Assembly (NCBI GenBank): GCA_044223185.1
Contig: JBGAMF010000007.1
Location: forward strand, 686-64,685
Reading direction: 5' to 3'
DNA from: Casimicrobiaceae bacterium
GTDB taxonomy: Bacteria; Pseudomonadota; Gammaproteobacteria; Burkholderiales; Casimicrobiaceae
DNA: 64,000 nucleotides
Position 1 is the first letter of the stretch; every line of letters starts with the position of its first letter. Position numbers and translations under genes: made by a program. Of the stretch, positions 5,534 to 64,000 are shown piece after piece. The notes under the pieces were generated by a model, which did no database searches, was not told the DNA's origin, and saw only the letters and a program-made list of their open reading frames with translations.

Positions 5534-6793
5534 CTACATGCGCTCGATCATCGCCTGGCCGAAGCCCGAGCACGAGACCTGCTTCGCGCCGTCCATCAGG
5601 CGCGCGAAGTCGTACGTCACGACCTTGTCGGCGATGGACTTCTCGAGGCTCGACACGATGAGCGCCGCCGCCTCCTTCCAGCCCATGTGGATCAGCATCA
5701 TTTCGGCCGAGAGGATCTCGGAGCCGGGATTGACGTAGTCCTTGCCCGCGTACTTGGGCGCGGTCCCGTGCGTCGCCTCGAACATCGCGACGGAGTCGGA
5801 CAGGTTGGCCCCCGGGGCGATGCCGATGCCGCCCACCTCGGCGGCCAGCGCGTCGCTGATGTAGTCGCCGTTCAGGTTGAGCGTGGCGATCACGCTGTAC
5901 TCGGCCGGGCGCAGCAGGATCTGCTGCAGGAACGCGTCGGCGATCACGTCCTTGACCACGATGTCCCCGCCGGTCTTCGGGTTCCGGATCGTCATCCACG
6001 GGCCGCCGTCGAGCGGCTTGGCGCCGAACTCGCGCTGGGCGAGCGCGTAGCCCCAGTCGCGGAACGCGCCCTCCGTGTACTTCATGATGTTGCCCTTGTG
6101 CACCAGCGTGACCGACGGCTTGTCGTTGTCGATCGCATACTGGATGGCCTTGCGGACGAGCCGGTCGGTGCCCTCGCTCGACACCGGCTTGATGCCGATG
6201 CCCGAAGTGGCCGGGAAGCGGATCTTCTTGACGCCCATTTCCTTGACGAGGAATTCGATCACCTTCTTCGCCTGCGGCGAGTCGGCGGCCCACTCGATGC
6301 CGGCGTAGATGTCCTCCGAGTTCTCGCGGAAGATCACCATGTCGACCTTTTCCGGCGCCTTGACCGGCGAGGGCACGCCCTGGAACCAGCGCACCGGGCG
6401 CAGGCAGACGTAGAGGTCGAGTTCCTGGCGAAGCGCGACGTTGAGCGACCGGATGCCGCCGCCGACCGGCGTGGTCAGCGGGCCCTTGATCGACACGACG
6501 TAGTCCTTGAGGATGGCGAGCGTCTCCTCCGGCAGCCAGACGTCGGGGCCGTAGATCTTGGTCGACTTCTCGCCGGCGTAGATTTCCATCCAGGCGATCC
6601 TGCGCTTGCCGCCGTAGGCCTTCGCGACCGCCGCGTCGACGACCTTGATCATCACCGGCGTGATGTCGAACCCCGTGCCGTCACCCTCGATGTACGGAAT
6701 GATCGGGTTGTCCGGGACGTTGATGCTGTAGTCGGGGTTGACGGTGATCTTGGCGCCGCTCGCGGGCACCTTGACGTGTTGGTAGCTGGGCAT
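5534..6793 (-). CDS. icd: NADP-dependent isocitrate dehydrogenase
   Basis: [38 protein letters not shown] motifs; start re-called to ATG 6793. Confidence 0.97.
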
Positions 6794-6945
6794 GGATGCT
6801 CCTCTTGGGGGCGGGCGTCGGGAAGCCGGACGGCGCGCGCGGCGCAAGCCGCACGGCCGACGGAGGCTGGAATTCGGAAAACTCTTGATTATCCTCGAAC
6901 TTGACCTTTCCCGCCACGCGGCCGGGCACCGGAAATGCACGGTCC

Positions 6946-7479
6946 GTGATCCTGCTCAACAAGCCCTACGGCGTGCTCTGCCAGTTCACGGCCGCGGACG
7001 GCCGGCCGACGCTCGCCGACCACGTCGACGTGCCCGGCGTCTATCCGGCGGGCCGGCTCGACGCCGACAGCGAGGGCCTAGTCGTGCTGACCGCCGATGG
7101 CCGGCAGCAGGCGCGGATCGCCGACCCGCGCCACAAGCTGCCCAAGACCTACTGGGTGCAGGTGGAGGGCACGCCCGGCGCCGAGGCGCTGCAGGCCCTG
7201 GCCCGCGGCGTCGTGCTCGCCGACGGACCGACGCTGCCGGCACGGGCCCGCGTGCTGCCCGCGCCGGCCGTCTGGCCCCGCGATCCCCCGATCCGCGTAC
7301 GCCGGGCCATCCCCACCGCATGGCTCGAACTCACGCTGCGCGAAGGCCGCAACCGGCAGGTGCGGCGGATGACCGCCGCGGTCGGCCTGCCGACGCTGCG
7401 CCTCATCCGCTGGGCAATCGGCCCGTGGTCGCTGGCGGGGCTCGCCCCCGGCCAGTGGCGGGAGGCCGCCGTGCTATGA
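6946..7479 (+). CDS. rluE: rRNA pseudouridine synthase, RluE-like
   Basis: [19 protein letters not shown] and [10 protein letters not shown] motifs; start uncertain (6901 TTG or 6946 GTG). Confidence 0.85.
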
Positions 7480-56924: not shown

Positions 56925-57872
56925 TCAATGTTGCTCGACGAAGCGCGGAACACTGTCACCGCTCAGATGTTTCAACAGTACATCGGCGACAGCGTCGGCA
57001 AAGTCCTCGTACTTCTTGTCGGTGGGCCAACCCAAATGCGGCGTGAGAATGACGTTTGGCAACGTCAACAAAGGATGACCGCGCGGTAGCGGCTCGCAGT
57101 CGAATACATCGAGACCGGCGCCTGCAATTCGACCGTCCGCCAGCACCGAAACCAGCGCAGCTTCATCAACGATCGGCCCACGAGCGGTGTTGATCAAACA
57201 GGCGGTAGGTTTCATGAGCCGAAGCCGCCGAGCGTCAAGCAACCCTCGCGTCTCGGGTGCGAGCGTCGCGTGCACTGAAACGACATCCGATTCCCGCATC
57301 AGATGATCCAGATCGCACCACTCTGCACCCAGCGACGCCGCGGCGCCATCGTCGCGACGACGGCTCCAGGCGAGGACTCGCATGTCGAAGGCTCGTGCGA
57401 TCTTCGCGACATGCATACCAACGTGCCCGAGTCCGATGACGCCAAGCGTCTTGCCATTGAGCTCGTGACCCAACGGGGCAGGCCAATGTCCGGACTTCAC
57501 GGCAGCGTCAGCCGCCGGTATGTGTCGCAGCAACGCAATGGTGAGGCCGATGGCCAATTCCGCCGCACCGGTGGAGAAGCCACCGCTCGCCTTTGCCACA
57601 ATCACCCCGCGCTCCCGGGCGGCCGCCAAATCGACGTGGTAAGCGTGGTTCCCGGTCTGCGCGAGAATCCGGAGATCGGGCAATCGCTCGAAGAGCGCCC
57701 GAGTGAATTTTGTGCGTTCGCGGTTCGCTACGAGGGCATCGAATCCACGCAATGCCGCTGCATCGCCAAATGGACCGACGAATATCCGAACCTCGGCTCG
57801 CTCCCTCAGCCGTCGGACGGCCTCGGTACGCTCATACGCCTGGTGGATATCATCAAGAATGGCGACATGCAC
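56925..57872 (-). CDS. D-2-hydroxyacid dehydrogenase family protein (cassette)
   Basis: GGAGG SD and GTG; VAILDD, GVIGLGHVG, LINTARG, LDVF..EP, TPHLG. Confidence 0.92.
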   Translation of the reverse strand: MHVAILDDIHQAYERTEAVRRLRERAEVRIFVGPFGDAAALRGFDALVANRERTKFTRALFERLPDLRILAQTGNHAYHVDLAAARERGVIVAKASGGFSTGAAELAIGLTIALLRHIPAADAAVKSGHWPAPLGHELNGKTLGVIGLGHVGMHVAKIARAFDMRVLAWSRRRDDGAAASLGAEWCDLDHLMRESDVVSVHATLAPETRGLLDARRLRLMKPTACLINTARGPIVDEAALVSVLADGRIAGAGLDVFDCEPLPRGHPLLTLPNVILTPHLGWPTDKKYEDFADAVADVLLKHLSGDSVPRFVEQH

Positions 57873-57889
57873 CTGCTGCCTCCATTGAC

Positions 57890-57979
57890 GCCTGACGAAA
57901 AAGGCGAGCGGCGCGCCGCCGCGGCGCCCGCCAAGTAGAAGCTGCGTACCGACGCGTCCGCTCGACCGCAGGATCAGGC
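57890..57979 (-). repeat. attC-like site with GAC/GTC variant R boxes
   Basis: GCCTGAC-gaaaa-aggcgagcgg-cgcg...cgcgT-ccgctcgAcc-gcagg-ATCAGGC; holds the hicB TGA. Confidence 0.75.
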
Positions 57980-58185
57980 CGGTACGTCGACGCACCGAAC
58001 CGAGCCAGTTGGCGCGGGAATGGGGGTACCATCTTCGCGCATGCCCTCAAGGTGAACTCGATAGCGTCGCGGATCTCCCGCTCGACTTCCTCGACGGTCG
58101 CGCCTGTAGCAACGCAGCCGGGAAGATCAGGAACGTCTGCCGAGTAGTTGGGCCCGGCGCTTTCGATCACGATCGCGTAGCGCAT
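57974..58185 (-). pseudogene. hicB: HicB antitoxin, frameshifted near 58053
   Basis: MRYAIVIE...YSADVPDLPGCVATG.T..E....I..AIEF / HLEGMREDGTPIP.P in two frames. Confidence 0.88.
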
Positions 58186-58195
58186 CTGGTTCCCC

Positions 58196-58383
58196 TCACC
58201 TCGTCGCGCCCGCCTGCTCTCGAATGCTATCGAGTGTCCCAGGAGCGCGTTCGTCGCTTGGCTTGCCAGGAACAGTGACTCGCCGGGTTTCGGCGGATGC
58301 TTGAACCGACGATGACTTCCGCGAGTGGCGACCAGGAACCACCTCTCGTCAGCAAGCAGCGGGAGCATCTCGCCCACCTTAAC
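58196..58383 (-). pseudogene. hicA: HicA mRNA interferase, frameshifted near 58281, start codon degraded
   Basis: W.LVATRGSHR.FKHP.KPG / RVTVPGKPSDE.APGTL.SI in two frames. Confidence 0.88.
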
Positions 58384-58426
58384 GCGCGGGATTATGCGCT
58401 CTCGGCCACGAGCTTCTCAACCTGAG

Positions 58427-58445
58427 GCCAAACGGGATTCAGGCC
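58427..58445 (-). repeat. Collapsed attC (both R boxes, central stem deleted)
   Basis: Minus strand GCCTGAA-tccc-GTTTGGC containing the SMI1/KNR4 stop. Confidence 0.5.
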
Positions 58446-59059
58446 TCAGTGCGGACAGCGTTGCCACGGTTGTCCTTTAGTTCGTTGATCCACCATTGGC
58501 GATTCTCGTCAGGGGTCACAAACCTCATGTGGCTCGCGATTGCAGTTAGTCGCGAAGTGTCCAGGTCCAGATTTCTCTTGACGAAGTCCGGCAAGCTCTG
58601 ACCCAACTCGACGAACTCGAATCCATCGTGTTCGAACTCGAAGACCCTTCCCGTGTATGGCCCGGCAGCAGGTACCAGGAGATAGTTGCCGCTTCGCGGA
58701 ATCTCTCCAACTACCAGGCAGTTCTTGATCCAGTCCGGCAGATAGTCTTCTTCCTCGTCCTCTTCGATACATTCCAGCCATGGCCTGAAACAACTATCCA
58801 GCTCGGGCCACTGTGAAGGACTTGCAATGAAGAAAGCGGCGTCTCCGCTCTCCTCCTCAAAATAGAGTGTGAGCTGCGCAAACGTGTCGTAGAAGTCCCG
58901 AAGTCCTTGAACGTCGGGCACGTCAACACTGGGGTCCGGTGGAAATGCAGCGTGACGGAAGCTCACGGCCTTGGTGTTCTTCTCGCTATGAATCTCACTG
59001 CAGATGAACTGCCCGACGTGTGACTGCACTTCGGAGCGTAGTGATTCGAGTGTGGGCAT
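58439..59059 (-). CDS. SMI1/KNR4 (SUKH) family immunity-like protein (cassette)
   Basis: L.DFY, VGEIP.SGNYLL, G.VFEFEHDG, SL.DFV; acidic. Confidence 0.7.
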   Translation of the reverse strand: MPTLESLRSEVQSHVGQFICSEIHSEKNTKAVSFRHAAFPPDPSVDVPDVQGLRDFYDTFAQLTLYFEEESGDAAFFIASPSQWPELDSCFRPWLECIEEDEEEDYLPDWIKNCLVVGEIPRSGNYLLVPAAGPYTGRVFEFEHDGFEFVELGQSLPDFVKRNLDLDTSRLTAIASHMRFVTPDENRQWWINELKDNRGNAVRTEA

Positions 59060-59092
59060 TGATCTTCCGAGGCGACGAACGGTGATTCGGAG

Positions 59093-59170
59093 GCCTAACG
59101 TTCGAGTTCACTCGCAGCCGGAAGCAGGCGAAGCCTGCTGGAGGCTGTCGGGTGCAACGACGGGTTAGCC
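59093..59170 (-). repeat. attC site
   Basis: GCCTAAC-gttcg-agttcactcg-cagcc...ggctgT-cgggtGcaac-gacgg-GTTAGCC; 78 bp. Confidence 0.95.
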
Positions 59171-59179
59171 CGCACGCTG

Positions 59180-59389
59180 CTACTTCCAGGCGAGGTTGAG
59201 CTTCTTACCAGATGCTGCGCACTCCTTGAGATAGAGGTTGATCAGACTCTGGTAAGGGATGCCGGTCTCGGCCGACATGGACTTGAAGTACGTGATTGAC
59301 TGTTCGTCAAGCCGAATGGTCACCGGCTTCTTAAGTTGCGACGCGTACGGGTTCTTTCGGGAAGCGCTGAAGTCATACTGCTTGCGCAT
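59180..59389 (-). CDS. brnA: BrnA/CopG-like antitoxin
   Basis: MRKQYDFS..RKNPY, KKPVTIRLD, GIPYQSLINLYL. Confidence 0.9.
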   Translation of the reverse strand: MRKQYDFSASRKNPYASQLKKPVTIRLDEQSITYFKSMSAETGIPYQSLINLYLKECAASGKKLNLAWK

Positions 59390-59397
59390 GGTGTCAC

Positions 59398-59676
59398 CTA
59401 TCGGTAGAAGCCCTGTTCCTCGCGCGTGGCCTTGCGCGCGGAGATGATACGGATGATGCCTCCTGCTTCACGATAGCAGTGCGCTACGACCAGTAGGCGC
59501 AAGCTGCTGCTGAGGCCAAGGAGAAGAAAGCGCTCTTCGTCTACCGAGTGGTCCGGATCATCGATCAGGCGGGCGCGCTCATCGGCAAACACGGACTCCG
59601 CGTCCTCGAACGACACGCCGTGCTTGCGGAAATTGGCCGCCGCCTTGCGAGGGTCCCACTCAAAGCGCAGGCTCAT
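59398..59676 (-). CDS. brnT: BrnT toxin
   Basis: FEWDPRKA..N.RKHGVSFE.A, D.DHS..E.RF, IRIISARKAT. Confidence 0.93.
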   Translation of the reverse strand: MSLRFEWDPRKAAANFRKHGVSFEDAESVFADERARLIDDPDHSVDEERFLLLGLSSSLRLLVVAHCYREAGGIIRIISARKATREEQGFYR

Positions 59677-59712
59677 GCCGACATTGTATGTACAACGTAC
59701 GTATACCGCAAC
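59677..59712 (-). promoter_or_regulatory. Cassette-borne brnTA promoter/operator
   Basis: TACAAT -10 just before the ATG; ttgta-tg-tacaa inverted repeat. Confidence 0.55.
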
Positions 59713-59728
59713 CCGGGGCCTTCGTGCG

Positions 59729-59815
59729 GGCTAACGCTACCAGCTAACCGGCGCGTGCCAGCGGCCGCCGAAGGACGGCCGCGGGACACGCGTGCGGTTG
59801 AGCGCCGGGTTAGGC
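59729..59815 (-). repeat. attC site
   Basis: GGCTAAC...agctaaccgg / gcggttGagc...GTTAGGC; holds the higA TAA; 87 bp. Confidence 0.95.
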
Positions 59816-60070
59816 CGCAGATTCAAGGGGCACTTCCCAACCTGGAAACACCAGCACGGCTGGGTGACACTTGAGCGCCCGGGCAAGTGCCTTTGCGCGT
59901 TCAACACCCAGATTCACTCGGCCGTTCTCGATTGCGGAAATGGTGGCCTGCGAGATTCCCGTCAGATCAGCGAGTTGGCTCTGGCTCAGTTCCTGAAGCT
60001 CGCGCAGGATCCGCACAGACTCACCAGGAGTGACATCGATACGATTCTTGGCAGGACGAAATGATTTCAT
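59810..60070 (-). CDS. higA: HigA-like XRE HTH antitoxin
   Basis: LSQSQLADLTGISQATISAIENG HTH. Confidence 0.85.
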   Translation of the reverse strand: MKSFRPAKNRIDVTPGESVRILRELQELSQSQLADLTGISQATISAIENGRVNLGVERAKALARALKCHPAVLVFPGWEVPLESAA

Positions 60071-60071
60071 A

Positions 60072-60356
60072 TCAAGGCTTTCGATAATCGTGCGGAGTTA
60101 CGTGAATCACTTGAATCAATAGCACTTCAGCAGAGACGCGATAGATCACGCGCCACTGCAAGCCAAGTCGAGATGAACGATGACCCTTCCATTCACCCGA
60201 CAGGGCCTCGTCGTGGAATCCCTTAATCATTCTCAGCCCGGGAGGTCCCGAGAGTCTGGCAACGTCCTTCCACTTTTCGTACCGCTTCAGAATCTCGATG
60301 GGGACCGCGCCAGCAAGTTGCTTGTCGACGCGACGATGCTCTTCGATCCGCCACAT
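60072..60356 (-). CDS. higB: HigB/RelE-superfamily mRNA interferase
   Basis: GFHDEALSGEWKGHRSSRL..QWRVIY; toxin-first order. Confidence 0.85.
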   Translation of the reverse strand: MWRIEEHRRVDKQLAGAVPIEILKRYEKWKDVARLSGPPGLRMIKGFHDEALSGEWKGHRSSRLGLQWRVIYRVSAEVLLIQVIHVTPHDYRKP

Positions 60357-60527: not shown

Positions 60528-61580
60528 TCAAGCTCCACCACCAAGGATTTTGATATAGCTCTGCTCTTTATCTCGAAGGTCCCATGTTGCCTGGATATGT
60601 CGCGTTAACTCCGGCAAATCGGTTTCAATCGTAGTCCGCCAGAGATGTGCTTTGTACTCAAAGACACGCAACATGTTGTCCACATCAAATACGCGACCCG
60701 TTCCCGTAGCCTTGATGATCGAAACCGGCCTATTCGTCATCATGCGAATGCCTAGCTCGAACAGCACATTAGGATTGTGTTCCGTCAAGTCGCATATGAC
60801 GAGATCAGCCTCCAACAACTCCTTGATGATGGTCGATTGGATCAGGTCGCTGCCTTGTCGGTTTGCCGTTCTTACTTGGAAACCTGCTTCGACTGCCGCC
60901 GGTGTGATAAGGCTTCGGAGCACTTCGGTGAAGAACCCGCTAGCATGTGTTGCTTCTCGTTCTACAAACGGCATGATCACAAAAGCTACAAGATTTGATG
61001 CTGTCTTCGGTTCGCCTACCACAACCGTGGTCTTGGTCTCGGCGGCCCTTTGCGGCGGCGAGCCAGGAGCATCACCGGCCTTGATTCCAAGATACTCGGA
61101 ATTGGCTCGAAAGAGCTTTGAAAATTCTTCGTGCTGCTCGGGCAGGAGTCCAAACTCTCTCTCCAGCGTGTTACCGAGATACTTCATTTCTGGCAGATCA
61201 CTGCCCTTGTAGTGATCGAACACTCGACGAAAGATGTCGACCCCCAGGAATGCTTCCGTTTTCTTTTCTAGCTCAGCTGCCGGGTCCGGAGCGTAAACAA
61301 TCGCTCTGCCCAGATCGGTGAGCTCCACCTTCGGGGTATTTCGAGTGCCGATCGTCAGTCCGAAGTCACGGGAAGCGGCGGTCGTGTAGTAAAACTTGTT
61401 GGTCTTGTGGCTCATGCTCAAGGCTGCGGCTAGATCCTCCACAGCCCATGGATTGCCACCATTCTTCTCCTTGATCGCGACTGGGACTTCTAGCGCTATC
61501 TCAAGAGGCAGGGTCGGAAAGGTGACCTTCGGCTTTTCCGCCTTCGGTGCAGTCTTTTTCGTACCTTTCTTCGCCGCCAC
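60528..61580 (-). CDS. Winged-helix plus nucleoside 2-deoxyribosyltransferase-like (NDT) two-domain protein (cassette)
   Basis: N-terminal FP...LE.AL, FGLT.G, VELT.LG.AI; C-terminal AFVIMPF, ADLVICDLTEHNPNVLFELG. Confidence 0.7.
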   Translation of the reverse strand: MAAKKGTKKTAPKAEKPKVTFPTLPLEIALEVPVAIKEKNGGNPWAVEDLAAALSMSHKTNKFYYTTAASRDFGLTIGTRNTPKVELTDLGRAIVYAPDPAAELEKKTEAFLGVDIFRRVFDHYKGSDLPEMKYLGNTLEREFGLLPEQHEEFSKLFRANSEYLGIKAGDAPGSPPQRAAETKTTVVVGEPKTASNLVAFVIMPFVEREATHASGFFTEVLRSLITPAAVEAGFQVRTANRQGSDLIQSTIIKELLEADLVICDLTEHNPNVLFELGIRMMTNRPVSIIKATGTGRVFDVDNMLRVFEYKAHLWRTTIETDLPELTRHIQATWDLRDKEQSYIKILGGGA

Positions 61581-61604
61581 AATTTTCTCCCTCTGAATAT
61601 TCGA

Positions 61605-61629
61605 ATCTAACGTTGGACTTCACCCGGTC
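61605..61629 (-). repeat. Half attC (core GTTAGAT plus one L arm); other half deleted at the upstream stop codon
   Basis: ATCTAAC-gttgg-acttcacccgg parallels the matching arms at 59093, 60420 and 63005, then runs straight into TGA 61630. Confidence 0.7.
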
Positions 61630-62976
61630 TCACCAGCGCACTTTCCACATTCCGCCTCCGGTGCAGGTGCCGCAATGCTGCAAACTCTTCCAGTCGTTGC
61701 GCCCCGTGACCTTCTCAAGCCCCTTTCTTGCCTTGTCGGCTTTCGCCGATCCTTGCCAAGACGTGTGACCACAGTCTGCGACCTCGACTAAGACATCGTA
61801 TGCGCCCTTGCTATGGGTTTTCTTGTAGAAGCGCACCTCACCCGACCCGGGGTCGGTGGACTCTGAAACGGTGGTGGTTTCGTCCGGGTCTTGGATCTCT
61901 GGCGCCTTCAGCTGGCTAAGTGCGTGTTCAGCCATGTCAGCACGAGCCGCAGTTCGAGCGAGTTCGCTCTGTAGTTGCTCCACTGTGTTCTTGAGATCCT
62001 GGTTCTCATTGATGTACAGACGAGCAATTGCGAGTTCTTCAGAGTTGGGCGCTGCGCGCGCCTCAAGTTCCTCAATCCGACCGCGCGCAACGGCATCCCG
62101 GACTTCTCGAATTCCAACGGGCGGGGTAATTGAGAGCGCAGCCGTCGACATCAGCATTCTGCGCAATGTGGATCTGAGACGATTGAGACCTTTCCCGTCG
62201 CGGTCATTGGACAGGAGCACAGATGCGGTCCAGACGGTACTATTGAAGGTTCCGTCTGGCCTGTTGCGAGGGGGCCAATAGAGGCGGACCGCGCCGCGAT
62301 AACACGAATGCAGTTTCCCGACCTCATCAGACAGGGTCCAGGTTGCATCGTCATCAATCGAGATCACATGGGCAAGACCTGCGAGGTCGAAAGCAAGTTC
62401 TTCTGCGAGCCTGGGCCAGAGTTGTTCACCCTCGATCTGTGACACGACCACGATGGGTAGGCTGCGGTTCCCGCTCCGAATCTCATTGGCAAGTTCCTTA
62501 CCGCCCGTCTCACCAGCGAGGGAGCGTGGCGTAGTTCCACCTATTGTAGTGCCGTTGAGAGTCCAGTCGGCGAACTGATCCAGCAGGGTCCGGACAATCG
62601 ACGGGCACCGCGGGTCGTTCGGCAGCGGAGCAACAATACTGGCAGAGTTCGCAACGCTCAGCGTGCAGTAGATTCTGAGTCGCCCGGCGACCGCCACCGC
62701 TGAGATATGTGTCGTGAAGATCTGACCGGCCCGCGTGAACTCCTCGAGTCGAACTTCGTGAAGGGCGCCGAGATGGACTATCTGCTCCTCGCGGGAGAAA
62801 ACTCCACTCCCATCCTTCGTCAGAGACTCGAACTCACCCGCGTTGAGCGAAGGATCGGCTGCCCCCTTACTTTGGAGCCAGGTAGACATGTTGTGGCGAA
62901 CGGCATCCAATCGACCCTGAAGCTCAGCGTCGGAGAATGTCGGGGATTCGAGAAGGTATGCCGAAAGCACTTGCAT
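61630..62976 (-). CDS. Hypothetical 448-aa protein with coiled coil and C-terminal Cys/His cluster (cassette)
   Basis: Begins 28 nt after the core at 63005; LPIVVVS, LAGLAHV, CYRGAVRLYWP; DCGH...HCGTC. Confidence 0.85.
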   Translation of the reverse strand: MQVLSAYLLESPTFSDAELQGRLDAVRHNMSTWLQSKGAADPSLNAGEFESLTKDGSGVFSREEQIVHLGALHEVRLEEFTRAGQIFTTHISAVAVAGRLRIYCTLSVANSASIVAPLPNDPRCPSIVRTLLDQFADWTLNGTTIGGTTPRSLAGETGGKELANEIRSGNRSLPIVVVSQIEGEQLWPRLAEELAFDLAGLAHVISIDDDATWTLSDEVGKLHSCYRGAVRLYWPPRNRPDGTFNSTVWTASVLLSNDRDGKGLNRLRSTLRRMLMSTAALSITPPVGIREVRDAVARGRIEELEARAAPNSEELAIARLYINENQDLKNTVEQLQSELARTAARADMAEHALSQLKAPEIQDPDETTTVSESTDPGSGEVRFYKKTHSKGAYDVLVEVADCGHTSWQGSAKADKARKGLEKVTGRNDWKSLQHCGTCTGGGMWKVRW

Positions 62977-63004: not shown

Positions 63005-63073
63005 GCCTAACGTTTGACATGAGGGGCTTGACCCGGCTTGCCGGGGCAAGTCCCCTCGATGGAAGGGTTAGGC
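63005..63073 (-). repeat. attC site
   Basis: GCCTAAC-gtttg-acatgagggg-cttg...caagT-cccctcGatg-gaagg-GTTAGGC; holds the upstream TAA; 69 bp. Confidence 0.96.
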
Positions 63074-63487
63074 CGCACTGTGATGGCCCAACTGCTTAAG
63101 CCCGGCTAGGTTGTCCCACTCCGCCCAAGCCTCGACGATGCGCTCGTTCTCGATGCGATAGATGGCCAGATACGCAGCGTCAAGCACTCGCCCAGAGGCA
63201 GGGTAGGGCCCCATTGAACCGAGCTGGGTTCCTCGAAACTGATGCCTGGCGGCGACTTTGTCATCTTCTGCCACGAGGTCCAAGAGCGTTTCGCGTGCGT
63301 CTGGGAACGTAGCGAACTCCATCTTAAGAAATGCAACCAACGCCTCGGCGGACTGAACGCTCGATTCGCCTGCGGCGACGCTGTGCCTGACGAAACGCTC
63401 ACCGATGAGGCCACGGAGCCGAGGCCAGTCTTGCTCGTTGATTGCCTCAACGAAAGCGCTGACTAGAGCTTTGTTCTTCTCGGACAT
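63068..63487 (-). CDS. SnoaL-like ester cyclase family protein (cassette)
   Basis: NKALV..FVEAIN, FPD, LVAEDDKVAAR..F.GT..G, YRIEN.RIVE.W. Confidence 0.88.
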   Translation of the reverse strand: MSEKNKALVSAFVEAINEQDWPRLRGLIGERFVRHSVAAGESSVQSAEALVAFLKMEFATFPDARETLLDLVAEDDKVAARHQFRGTQLGSMGPYPASGRVLDAAYLAIYRIENERIVEAWAEWDNLAGLKQLGHHSAA

Positions 63488-63510
63488 AGTGAGGTGTTGG
63501 TTCTTGTGCG

Positions 63511-63591
63511 GGCTAACGAAAAAGGTGACCGGCGCGCGAAAGGCGGGCGAAGCCACGCCGAGGCGCGTCCGCGTTGACCGCCGGGTTAGGT
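63511..63591 (-). repeat. attC site
   Basis: GGCTAAC-gaaaa-aggtgaccgg-cgcgc...gcgcgT-ccgcgttgacc-gccgg-GTTAGGT; 81 bp. Confidence 0.9.
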
Positions 63592-63601
63592 TGCATAGGC
63601 G

Positions 63602-63871
63602 CTACCGCGACTTGCTAAGCCGCTCGGCCATTCGGGTCTGCCAGCCTGGGCCGGTAGCTTTCCAGCGCTCGATGACGTCGACCGGCAGGCGGATGGAGAT
63701 GAGCTTGCGCGGATTCGCCGACAGCGGACGTCCGCCCTTGTTCACGACGGCGCGAGCCAAAGCCTGCTCCGTCAAAGCCGGCAACTCCGTGTACTCGTGC
63801 GCCCGTATCGAGTGAGCATCGACCTTGGTGAGGTCAGATTTCAAAGAACGGCGCGAGGCGGTCTTTCTCAC
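63602..63871 (-). CDS. brnA: BrnA antitoxin (DUF4415 type)
   Basis: GGRP....RKLISIRLP.DVIE.WKATG.GWQTRM. Confidence 0.92.
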   Translation of the reverse strand: MRKTASRRSLKSDLTKVDAHSIRAHEYTELPALTEQALARAVVNKGGRPLSANPRKLISIRLPVDVIERWKATGPGWQTRMAERLSKSR

Positions 63872-64000
63872 GTTGGTTGGCCTTTCGCATGCTGAAAATG
63901 TGGCGAGCGTTTCCTCTCGGCGTGTAGCCGACGACGACTAGGCGGCCGCCAAGCATGCCGTAGCAGATGATGCGCGGCTCGCCATAGTTCCTGCGCAGGT
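63834..64000 (-). CDS. brnT: BrnT toxin, 5' part outside window
   Basis: Manual translation LRRNYGEPRIICYGMLGGRLVVVGYTPRGNARHIFSMRKANQRE...*. Confidence 0.88.
   Translation of the reverse strand, partial: LRRNYGEPRIICYGMLGGRLVVVGYTPRGNARHIFSMRKANQREKDRLAPFFEI

Follow-up and report, generated by a model that had tools for sequence, protein, structure and literature searches.

The window analyzed here, a stretch of 64,000 nucleotides from a Casimicrobiaceae bacterium, carries a gene, P0001, whose 350-residue product joins a winged-helix module to a predicted N-glycosidase domain related to nucleoside 2-deoxyribosyltransferases (NDT) and TIR enzymes. P0001 represents a large, uncharacterized and horizontally mobile family whose members stand alone, without a dedicated partner gene, and this family can well be regarded as a candidate for a novel one-gene defense that depletes NAD+ or nucleotides. 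More specifically, and with a confidence that falls somewhat short of an even chance, we suggest that P0001 is an autoinhibited stand-alone N-glycosidase, which would act on NAD+ or a nucleotide in abortive infection. The starting point was an earlier note, made from the DNA letters, that had described the open reading frame (ORF) as a winged-helix/NDT fusion resembling nucleotide-depleting defense effectors. The coordinates of all features are collected in Table 1.

P0001 is a real gene encoding a two-part protein

Full-length matches to P0001 were found in more than 2,139 clusters at 90% identity, with E values down to 1e-190, and an alignment of 40 family sequences contained 88 invariant columns distributed over both halves of the protein. 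Therefore, P0001 is a real gene and no chance ORF. A strong Shine-Dalgarno sequence lies ahead of its GTG start codon. The earlier note was right to treat this ORF as a gene, but it did not mention that the gene lies on the minus strand. A search of NCBIfam with P0001 returned noise only. According to a full-length AlphaFold model built with the 40 sequences as input (mean predicted local distance difference test score [pLDDT], 81), residues 1 to 16 form a disordered, Lys-rich tail, which is followed by a helical region, a low-confidence linker at residues 168 to 181 and an alternation of β and α elements from residue 185 to residue 350. The low-complexity linker noticed earlier corresponds to this low-confidence stretch, which was also variable in the alignment. 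Both motifs that had been quoted for a C-terminal Rossmann-like domain are present as given, FVIMPF at residues 200 to 205 and ADLVICDLTEHNPNVLFELG at residues 258 to 277.

The C-terminal domain is a predicted N-glycosidase with an invariant glutamate

The C-terminal domain is marked by the signature FVIMPFxE ... GFFxEV ... RQGSDxIQSTI ... ADLVIxDLTxHNPNVLFELG ... KPVxLIK ... FDVDN. The glutamate of its FELG motif, E275, was found in 40 of 40 sequences in each of two 40-sequence alignments. When PDB sequences were searched with phmmer and hmmsearch, DNPH1/Rcl was the only match besides marginal noise at E≥0.7 (an asparaginase, with the profile). In both searches, E275 was aligned to the YELG glutamate of DNPH1/Rcl, the catalytic nucleophile in that family. 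In Pfam, every family member matched PF05014 (Nuc_deoxyrib_tr) weakly: all 40 C-terminal domains did so at E≤0.1, with a best E value of 2.3e-7. PF10137 (CAP12/Pycsar TIR) was touched by 4 of the 40 (best E value, 0.035), and no other Pfam family recurred among them. DUF4062 (PF13271) was matched neither by P0001 at E≤1 nor by the 40 C-terminal domains at E≤0.1. With PADLOC 2.0, the sole match of P0001 was PDLC00733, a CBASS-style "Effector TIR" model (E value, 6.1e-6; residues 232 to 330); beyond this weak match, the search gave no validated or candidate defense system for P0001.

The predicted structure was compared as well. The alternation of strands and helices over residues 185 to 334 of the model is that of a three-layer α/β Rossmannoid like NDT and DNPH1. 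In a Foldseek search of the PDB, the top match was DNPH1 (9da6_B; TMt, 0.63), followed by MilB (0.59) and NDT (8qc0; 0.51) among the 50 matches listed, with E values of only about 1e-3 and with Ras-like folds scoring alike. The per-domain Foldseek comparison put forward in the earlier note returned DNPH1, MilB and NDT among the matches for this half of the protein, and the proposal of an NDT-like domain was supported, by PF05014 and Foldseek for the fold and by the alignment with DNPH1/Rcl for the glutamate of the ELG motif. Because of the PF05014, PADLOC, Foldseek and DNPH1 matches together with the alignment of E275, the domain is a divergent member of the TIR-DrHyd(NDT)-SLOG class (for background, see PMC9503650) that has kept the catalytic Glu. 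The invariant Glu and the fold argue for cleavage of an N-glycosidic bond.

The N-terminal module has no significant relative

The N-terminal winged-helix-like region that had been read from the letters was recovered in the model as a helix-helix-helix-β hairpin arrangement at about residues 25 to 98, with further helices up to residue 164. When residues 20 to 166 were modeled separately, a winged helix followed by five further helices was again obtained (pLDDT, 97; predicted template modeling score, 0.89). In the 40-sequence alignment, the invariant residues of the winged helix were N40, G42, W45, Y65, A68, R71, D72, G78 and G91. The tail ahead of it varies in length across the family (median, 34 residues; maximum, 156 residues) and consists of about 30% Lys and Arg.

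A profile search of the PDB with the N-terminal module found no significant relative; it returned only matches to a TetR HTH and to a designed repeat, with E values of about 0.006. Foldseek searches of the PDB and BFVD returned generic winged helices only, at E≥0.03 (O-methyltransferase dimerization domains, MarR, DtxR and Z-binding domains). The winged helix and bundle gave a weak match to Pfam DUF7226 in 16 of 38 members, with a best E value of 1.9e-4. DUF7226 is a haloarchaeal DUF that, among 14 control genomes, matched Haloferax volcanii only, and a literature search found no paper mentioning it. The possibility that the module corresponds to the C-terminal extension of a sister family was rejected, as hhalign showed no relation. 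As modeled, the N-terminal part combines a winged helix with a helical bundle in a way not described before, and neither the structural searches nor Pfam gave it a significant relative.

The family is widespread, rare and stand-alone

Among GTDB species representatives, 209 relatives were detected, which span at least 15 phyla and are 48 to 63% identical over nearly the whole length. The best 80 of these 209 came from Acidobacteriota, Verrucomicrobiota, Planctomycetota, Bacteroidota, Chlorobiota/Ignavibacteriota, Armatimonadota, Gemmatimonadota, Nitrospirota, Actinomycetota, Spirochaetota, several proteobacterial classes and others. The family is present in about 0.1% of species. The gene was found in none of 60 relatives of the source genome (36 congeneric species plus 24 other genera of the order).

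All ORFs of 80 loci were then clustered all against all, with antisense shadow ORFs inside the gene set aside, and no neighbor family recurred in more than 5 of these loci. In addition, the 132 immediate neighbors at 77 family loci were scanned with Pfam and PADLOC. They were heterogeneous, and the contexts of individual loci concurred. Among them were genes of mobile or defense type, namely resolvases, two reverse transcriptases (RT), type I restriction-modification subunits, a SMODS cyclase, a type IV restriction gene and mad2. Since no neighbor family is conserved and the immediate neighbors are heterogeneous, P0001 works without a dedicated partner gene. Of the two possibilities raised earlier, a stand-alone or a partner-gated protein, the first is borne out across the family loci and the second is not. 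Two genes upstream of a 79%-identical homologue (locus L008) were considered as partners and rejected; they are unrelated to P0002, the gene upstream of P0001 in the window, and have no Pfam match.

One metagenomic member, P0265 (566 residues), has the full body with the winged helix and the NDT-like domain and, in addition, a C-terminal domain of about 200 residues without a Pfam match. P0265 scored 26.4 bits against PF05014. This extra domain could represent a fusion to another effector or sensor.

P0001 lies in a fused integron cassette

Downstream of P0001, an attC site with fully complementary RYYYAAC/GTTRRRY cores closes the cassette. Folded as single-stranded DNA, this site formed bulged stems and was more stable than expected (z = −5.0), with none of 200 shuffled sequences as stable. 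A second attC site opens the cassette (Table 1), and the gene lies in a chromosomal integron. The ORFs between 58.4 and 64 kb are all on the minus strand, and the GC content is 0.52 to 0.56 over P0001 compared with about 0.74 in the backbone. An integron integrase gene (TIGR02249; 470 bits against a cutoff of 265) was found on a small separate contig of the same genome (C164:453-1394). As the cassette array reads away from the right end of the window, this contig may lie beyond that end, where it would join contig C53, which carries the window. In the window as a whole, the GC content declines from about 0.74 (40 to 49 kb) through 0.63 to 0.70 (49 to 58 kb) to 0.52 to 0.62 (58 to 64 kb), a gradient that fits recently acquired cassettes adjoining older or host-like sequence.

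The spacer of 49 bp between P0001 and P0002 holds a collapsed attC site, in which the inverse core stands directly against the core and the entire central part is gone. P0001 and P0002 were therefore formerly separate cassettes, and the collapsed site marks their former boundary within what is now one cassette. The fused cassette illustrates how cassettes can be joined through attC collapse. Carriage in cassettes is not peculiar to this genome. In a metagenome-assembled genome of Treponemataceae (L038), a P0001 homologue of 57% identity makes up a cassette by itself, with an attC site at 5771-5895, the gene at 5989-7056 and another attC site from 7082. The surrounding region (L038 3899-9853) is an integron-like array with attC sites of about 125 bp. 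Defense systems are abundant in integron cassettes (bioRxiv 10.1101/2024.07.02.601686).

Proposed function and alternatives

The mechanism that we tentatively propose is as follows. E275 would cleave the base-ribose bond of a nucleotide. By analogy with TIR, Retron-Eco1 and Swarozyc effectors, NAD(P)+ would be the most likely substrate; the alternative would be a (modified) (deoxy)nucleotide, as in DNPH1 and MilB. A stand-alone N-glycosidase must be held inactive, and the conserved N-terminal module with its basic tail would be the obvious regulator. The tail, winged helix and bundle would together keep the enzyme inactive until a conserved ligand associated with infection binds, possibly a nucleic acid held by the basic tail or a conserved macromolecule. 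The active sites of NDT and TIR enzymes form between subunits. Ligand-driven oligomerization would therefore be the likeliest switch, with active sites being built at subunit interfaces as in those enzymes. Loss of an essential nucleotide would follow and stop the growth of the infected cell. Because the N-terminal module is so strongly conserved, a variable phage protein is argued against as the ligand, and a nucleic acid or another conserved ligand is favored. A single-gene role in phage defense is plausible, and in the source genome P0001 lies among toxin-antitoxin and defense-like cassettes. If the family is indeed one of defense, it would provide a compact one-gene NAD+- or nucleotide-depleting immune protein, spread over at least 15 bacterial phyla, with a sensor module that is without precedent in structure. 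In that case, the unusual conservation of the family would suggest that its trigger is hard for phages to change.

Several observations weigh against this proposal. Both domains are unusually conserved for a defense protein (mean column identity, 64% and 69%), and no signature of a diversifying sensor was seen in the family domains. Many of the 132 immediate neighbors are housekeeping genes, such as those for a chaperonin, TrpA, ribonucleotide reductase, GyrB and dihydrodipicolinate synthase. The match to PF05014 amounted to 13.8 bits for whole P0001 and 15.7 bits for its C-terminal domain, whereas the Pfam gathering threshold is 28.8. The general-acid, sugar/base-binding Asp of DNPH1 (IHEQDL; D69 in rat, D80 in human, D72 in NDT) falls on the hydrophobic I251 in the invariant QSTI, in a short alignment that is possibly shifted; the chemistry and substrate may thus differ from those of DNPH1. 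Finally, the winged helix is close to neutral (median isoelectric point across the family, 7.2), which makes it no more than a putative DNA-binding domain.

The alternative that survives best, which we nevertheless consider unlikely, makes P0001 a nucleotide or DNA glycosylase for modified bases. The enzyme would hydrolyze a modified (deoxy)nucleoside monophosphate, as DNPH1 does with hydroxymethyl-dUMP and MilB with hydroxymethyl-CMP, or would excise a modified base from phage DNA, with the tail and winged helix keeping the enzyme on nucleic acid. In that case, restriction or the destruction of precursors would protect the cells, rather than abortive infection. DNPH1 and MilB, the best matches in structure and sequence, are monophosphate N-hydrolases of modified pyrimidines, the Lys-rich tail and winged helix are family features, and the high conservation would suit a conserved small-molecule or DNA substrate. 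However, the Asp and the phosphate-loop residues of DNPH1 are not conserved in the P0001 alignment, the model matched in PADLOC is that of a TIR effector, and NDT-fold enzymes are not known to act on polymeric DNA.

We regard it as quite improbable that P0001 has no part in defense at all, being instead a ligand-sensing DNA-binding regulator or nucleoid-associated protein whose NDT-like domain binds a nucleotide, or a salvage enzyme with a regulatory appendage. A winged helix combined with a ligand-binding Rossmannoid is a common layout of regulators, and the histone-like basic tail, the very high conservation across phyla and the many housekeeping neighbors would be in keeping with such a role. 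Yet the catalytic Glu and the motif around it are invariant, and there is no conserved target operon or neighbor. The restriction of the family to so small a fraction of species and its absence from close relatives of the source genome also argue against it, as do the domain relatives fused to TPR-S beside TIR and SLATT genes (see below) and the carriage in integron cassettes; such cassettes generally have no promoter of their own.

A two-gene system, in which P0002 would sense infection or neutralize P0001 and the fused cassette would be the functional unit, appears very unlikely. The two genes are co-oriented within one cassette, and the middle part of P0002 matches the defense candidate HEC-07 (positions 137 to 372 of 553). 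This match ends ahead of the C-terminal RelE RNase domain of HEC-07 (bioRxiv 10.1101/2024.01.29.577857). Moreover, in the 8 places listed for the identical P0001 protein, the 448-residue gene (P0002) or a truncated ORF in its place stood upstream wherever the upstream flank was present. The neighboring genes are also the same, however, so that a single array appears to have been sampled several times. P0002 has at least 275 homologues of its own, and cases without a P0001 relative were found among them: a 69%-identical one (L097/L098) forms a one-gene cassette between attC sites of 128 to 129 bp and is followed by an Mrr restriction gene, and a second stands in an unrelated context. Conversely, a P0002-like neighbor was found at none of the 77 loci of P0001 homologues, and the Treponemataceae homologue is alone in its cassette. 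Because of the collapsed attC site and the separate occurrence of each family, P0002 was rejected as a partner of P0001; the two genes were brought together by chance in the history of the cassettes and do not form a conserved operon. In place of a RelE domain, P0002 has a coiled-coil-like stretch and 70 C-terminal residues rich in Cys and His.

A kinship with the effector of retron Ec86/Eco1 had also been suggested. That effector is an N-glycosidase which hydrolyzes NAD(P)+ in a filament with the RT and its multicopy single-stranded DNA (msDNA) (PMC12673091), and it resembles P0001 in combining an NDT-like N-glycosidase, used by Eco1 as the toxic effector, with a nucleic-acid-binding part, putative in P0001. 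An orphan or permuted type II retron effector dependent on an RT-msDNA encoded elsewhere is largely refuted and barely credible: besides the general likeness, its support would be the two RTs among the 132 neighbors, which stand at only 2 of the 77 loci, whereas the domain order in the model is reversed (NDT-like domain C-terminal), as had been noted, the lack of an RT in the window extends to the whole 4.18-Mb, 93%-complete assembly (PF00078/RVT_1; msr/msd noncoding RNA was not searched for), no PADLOC retron-effector model matched P0001 at E≤1, and the Eco1 N-glycosidase (PDB 8QBM, per PMC12673091) was found neither among the PDB sequence matches at E≤10 nor among the 50 Foldseek matches listed, leaving a sequence relation at the superfamily level only.

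Relation of P0001 to known enzymes and effectors

The closest known systems compare with P0001 as follows. DNPH1/Rcl, MilB and the NDTs (PF05014; DrHyd superfamily of Burroughs and Aravind) share with P0001 the Rossmannoid fold (Foldseek TMt, 0.59 to 0.64) and a catalytic Glu in a hydrophobic-E-L/I-G motif past strand 4. P0001 differs from them in its score below the Pfam threshold, in the general-acid and phosphate-loop residues discussed above, in the family's own signature (FVIMPF, RQGSDxIQSTI, HNPNVLFELG and FDVDN) and in the N-terminal module of 165 residues. It is also mobile and rare, not housekeeping.

Swarozyc is a single-gene system in which a TIR-like NADase is combined with a winged-helix auxiliary domain and the phage portal is the trigger (bioRxiv 10.64898/2026.05.01.722283). 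The likeness of P0001 to Swarozyc (DUF4062) is one of logic only, both being, in the case of P0001 by prediction, single-gene, Glu-dependent TIR/NDT-like N-glycosidases with a winged-helix domain and a patchy distribution through horizontal gene transfer. In contrast to Swarozyc, P0001 has no PF13271 match, has the opposite domain order and is far more conserved; the auxiliary domain of Swarozyc binds the phage portal. The TIR effectors of CAP12/Pycsar and CBASS (PF10137; PDLC00733) have a weak profile match to the catalytic core of P0001 (E value, 6e-6) that includes the NV(L/I)FELG-type motif. These effectors are gated by a cyclic-nucleotide sensor and lie beside a cyclase, whereas P0001 has no linked cyclase and PF10137 is matched by 4 of 40 members at E≤0.1.

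The catalytic domain belongs to a very large family

A profile of the C-terminal domain detected 5,149 representatives at 50% identity with E≤1e-10. In the ranking, about 70 clusters fused to the winged helix came first, followed by a far larger set of proteins of 260 to 330 residues with the domain at the N terminus and a variable extension. These proteins share the FVIMP, GHF, NPNVLFELG, KPV and IFD motifs, and their database matches were weak and limited to PF05014 and PDLC00733. One of them is a 305-residue "hypothetical protein" of Escherichia phage vB_EcoM-689R2 (L101 3932-4849), which has the same domain at its N terminus (hhalign probability, 99.1%). Its gene sits between a cluster of nuclease/TIR-like genes and a helicase gene in an E. 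coli prophage setting; it occurs in 24 of 5,426 complete genomes of E. coli and was annotated as "hypothetical protein" in 8 of the 8 records listed. This protein is an experimentally tractable E. coli relative.

Plasmid proteins with the same domain are annotated as "TRAFs-binding domain-containing protein." In WP_017097460.1, from Vibrio harveyi pVH3, the domain (hhalign probability, 98.7%; E value, 4e-16; 34% identity), with its FVIM and NPN..ELG motifs, is N-terminal and fused to a C-terminal TPR-S repeat sensor (PF20308), whereas P0001 has the N-terminal winged-helix module instead. The fusion gene adjoins two TIR genes and a DUF4231 (SLATT-type) gene (L102 2875-6209), and the cluster looks like an uncharacterized nucleotide-based conflict locus. 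A literature search found nothing relevant on DUF4071/TRAFs-binding proteins in defense. A single catalytic domain combined with interchangeable appendages in conflict-type neighborhoods would be typical of immune effectors, as we infer within the framework of PMC9503650. A broader view is more speculative and, on balance, somewhat doubtful: the "FVIMP...NPNVLFELG" domain could define an unrecognized, very large clade of TIR/NDT-like N-glycosidases (more than 5,000 clusters at 50% identity, with unannotated E. coli prophage genes and TPR-S fusions among them) used as a swappable executioner in single-gene antiviral systems, with the winged-helix-fused subfamily as a new defense system whose highly conserved N-terminal module would respond to a conserved signal, from nucleic acid or from the host, rather than to a variable phage protein. 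The reading of P0001 would supply a name and a candidate activity for thousands of "hypothetical proteins" with this catalytic domain, the E. coli prophage genes among them.

Neighboring cassettes in the window

Table 1. Features of P0001 and its surroundings in the window
Feature	Position	Strand	Basis
P0001, 350-residue ORF: Lys-rich tail, winged helix, helical bundle, linker and NDT/TIR-like domain; stop codon TGA at 60528-60530	60528..61580	-	ORF list, homologue search, alignment, AlphaFold model
Shine-Dalgarno sequence GAGGGAG, with a 6-nt spacer to the GTG start (61578-61580)	61587..61593	-	Direct sequence reading
Residues 1-19, disordered Lys/Arg-rich tail (7 Lys + Arg of 19; isoelectric point, 10.4)	61524..61580	-	Alignment, model, composition
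Residues 20-98, winged helix-turn-helix (three helices and β hairpin)	61287..61523	-	AlphaFold pLDDT 97; in PDB and BFVD, only weak matches to winged helices
Residues 99-166, acidic helical bundle with conserved YKGSDLPEMKYLGNTLEREFGL motif	61083..61286	-	Alignment, AlphaFold model, composition
Residues 167-184, variable low-complexity linker	61029..61082	-	pLDDT <50 for 168-181; variable alignment columns
Residues 185-350, NDT/DrHyd/TIR-like Rossmannoid, putative N-glycosidase domain	60531..61028	-	Pfam, PADLOC, Foldseek, PDB sequence searches, alignments, hhalign
Codon of E275, invariant Glu of the FELG motif	60756..60758	-	HMMER alignment to the DNPH1/Rcl catalytic Glu; invariance
attC closing the P0001 cassette, GCCTAAC...GTTAGGC, 91 bp, beginning 17 nt past the stop codon	60420..60510	.	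7/7 complementary cores
Collapsed attC in the P0002-P0001 spacer; minus strand GTCCAAC and GTTAGAT abutting	61605..61618	.	Only RYYYAACGTTRRRY in 64 kb versus 0.02 expected
P0002, 448-residue gene now in the cassette of P0001; middle part HEC-07-like; independent family	61630..62976	-	PADLOC PDLC04161, E=3.7e-26
attC opening the fused cassette, 69 bp	63005..63073	.	attC search
SnoaL-like cassette	63068-63556	-	
BrnT/BrnA	59180-59676 and 63602-63998	-	
RelE/HigB-like 94-residue gene and XRE-HTH (HigA-like) 86-residue gene	59810-60356	-	
206-residue protein, weak SUKH/SMI1 match	58439-59059	-	
HicB-like gene	57853-58377	-	

On both sides of the fused cassette, the window contains cassettes of toxin-antitoxin type, at 57853-60356 and at 63602-63998, all of which are on the minus strand like P0001 (Table 1).

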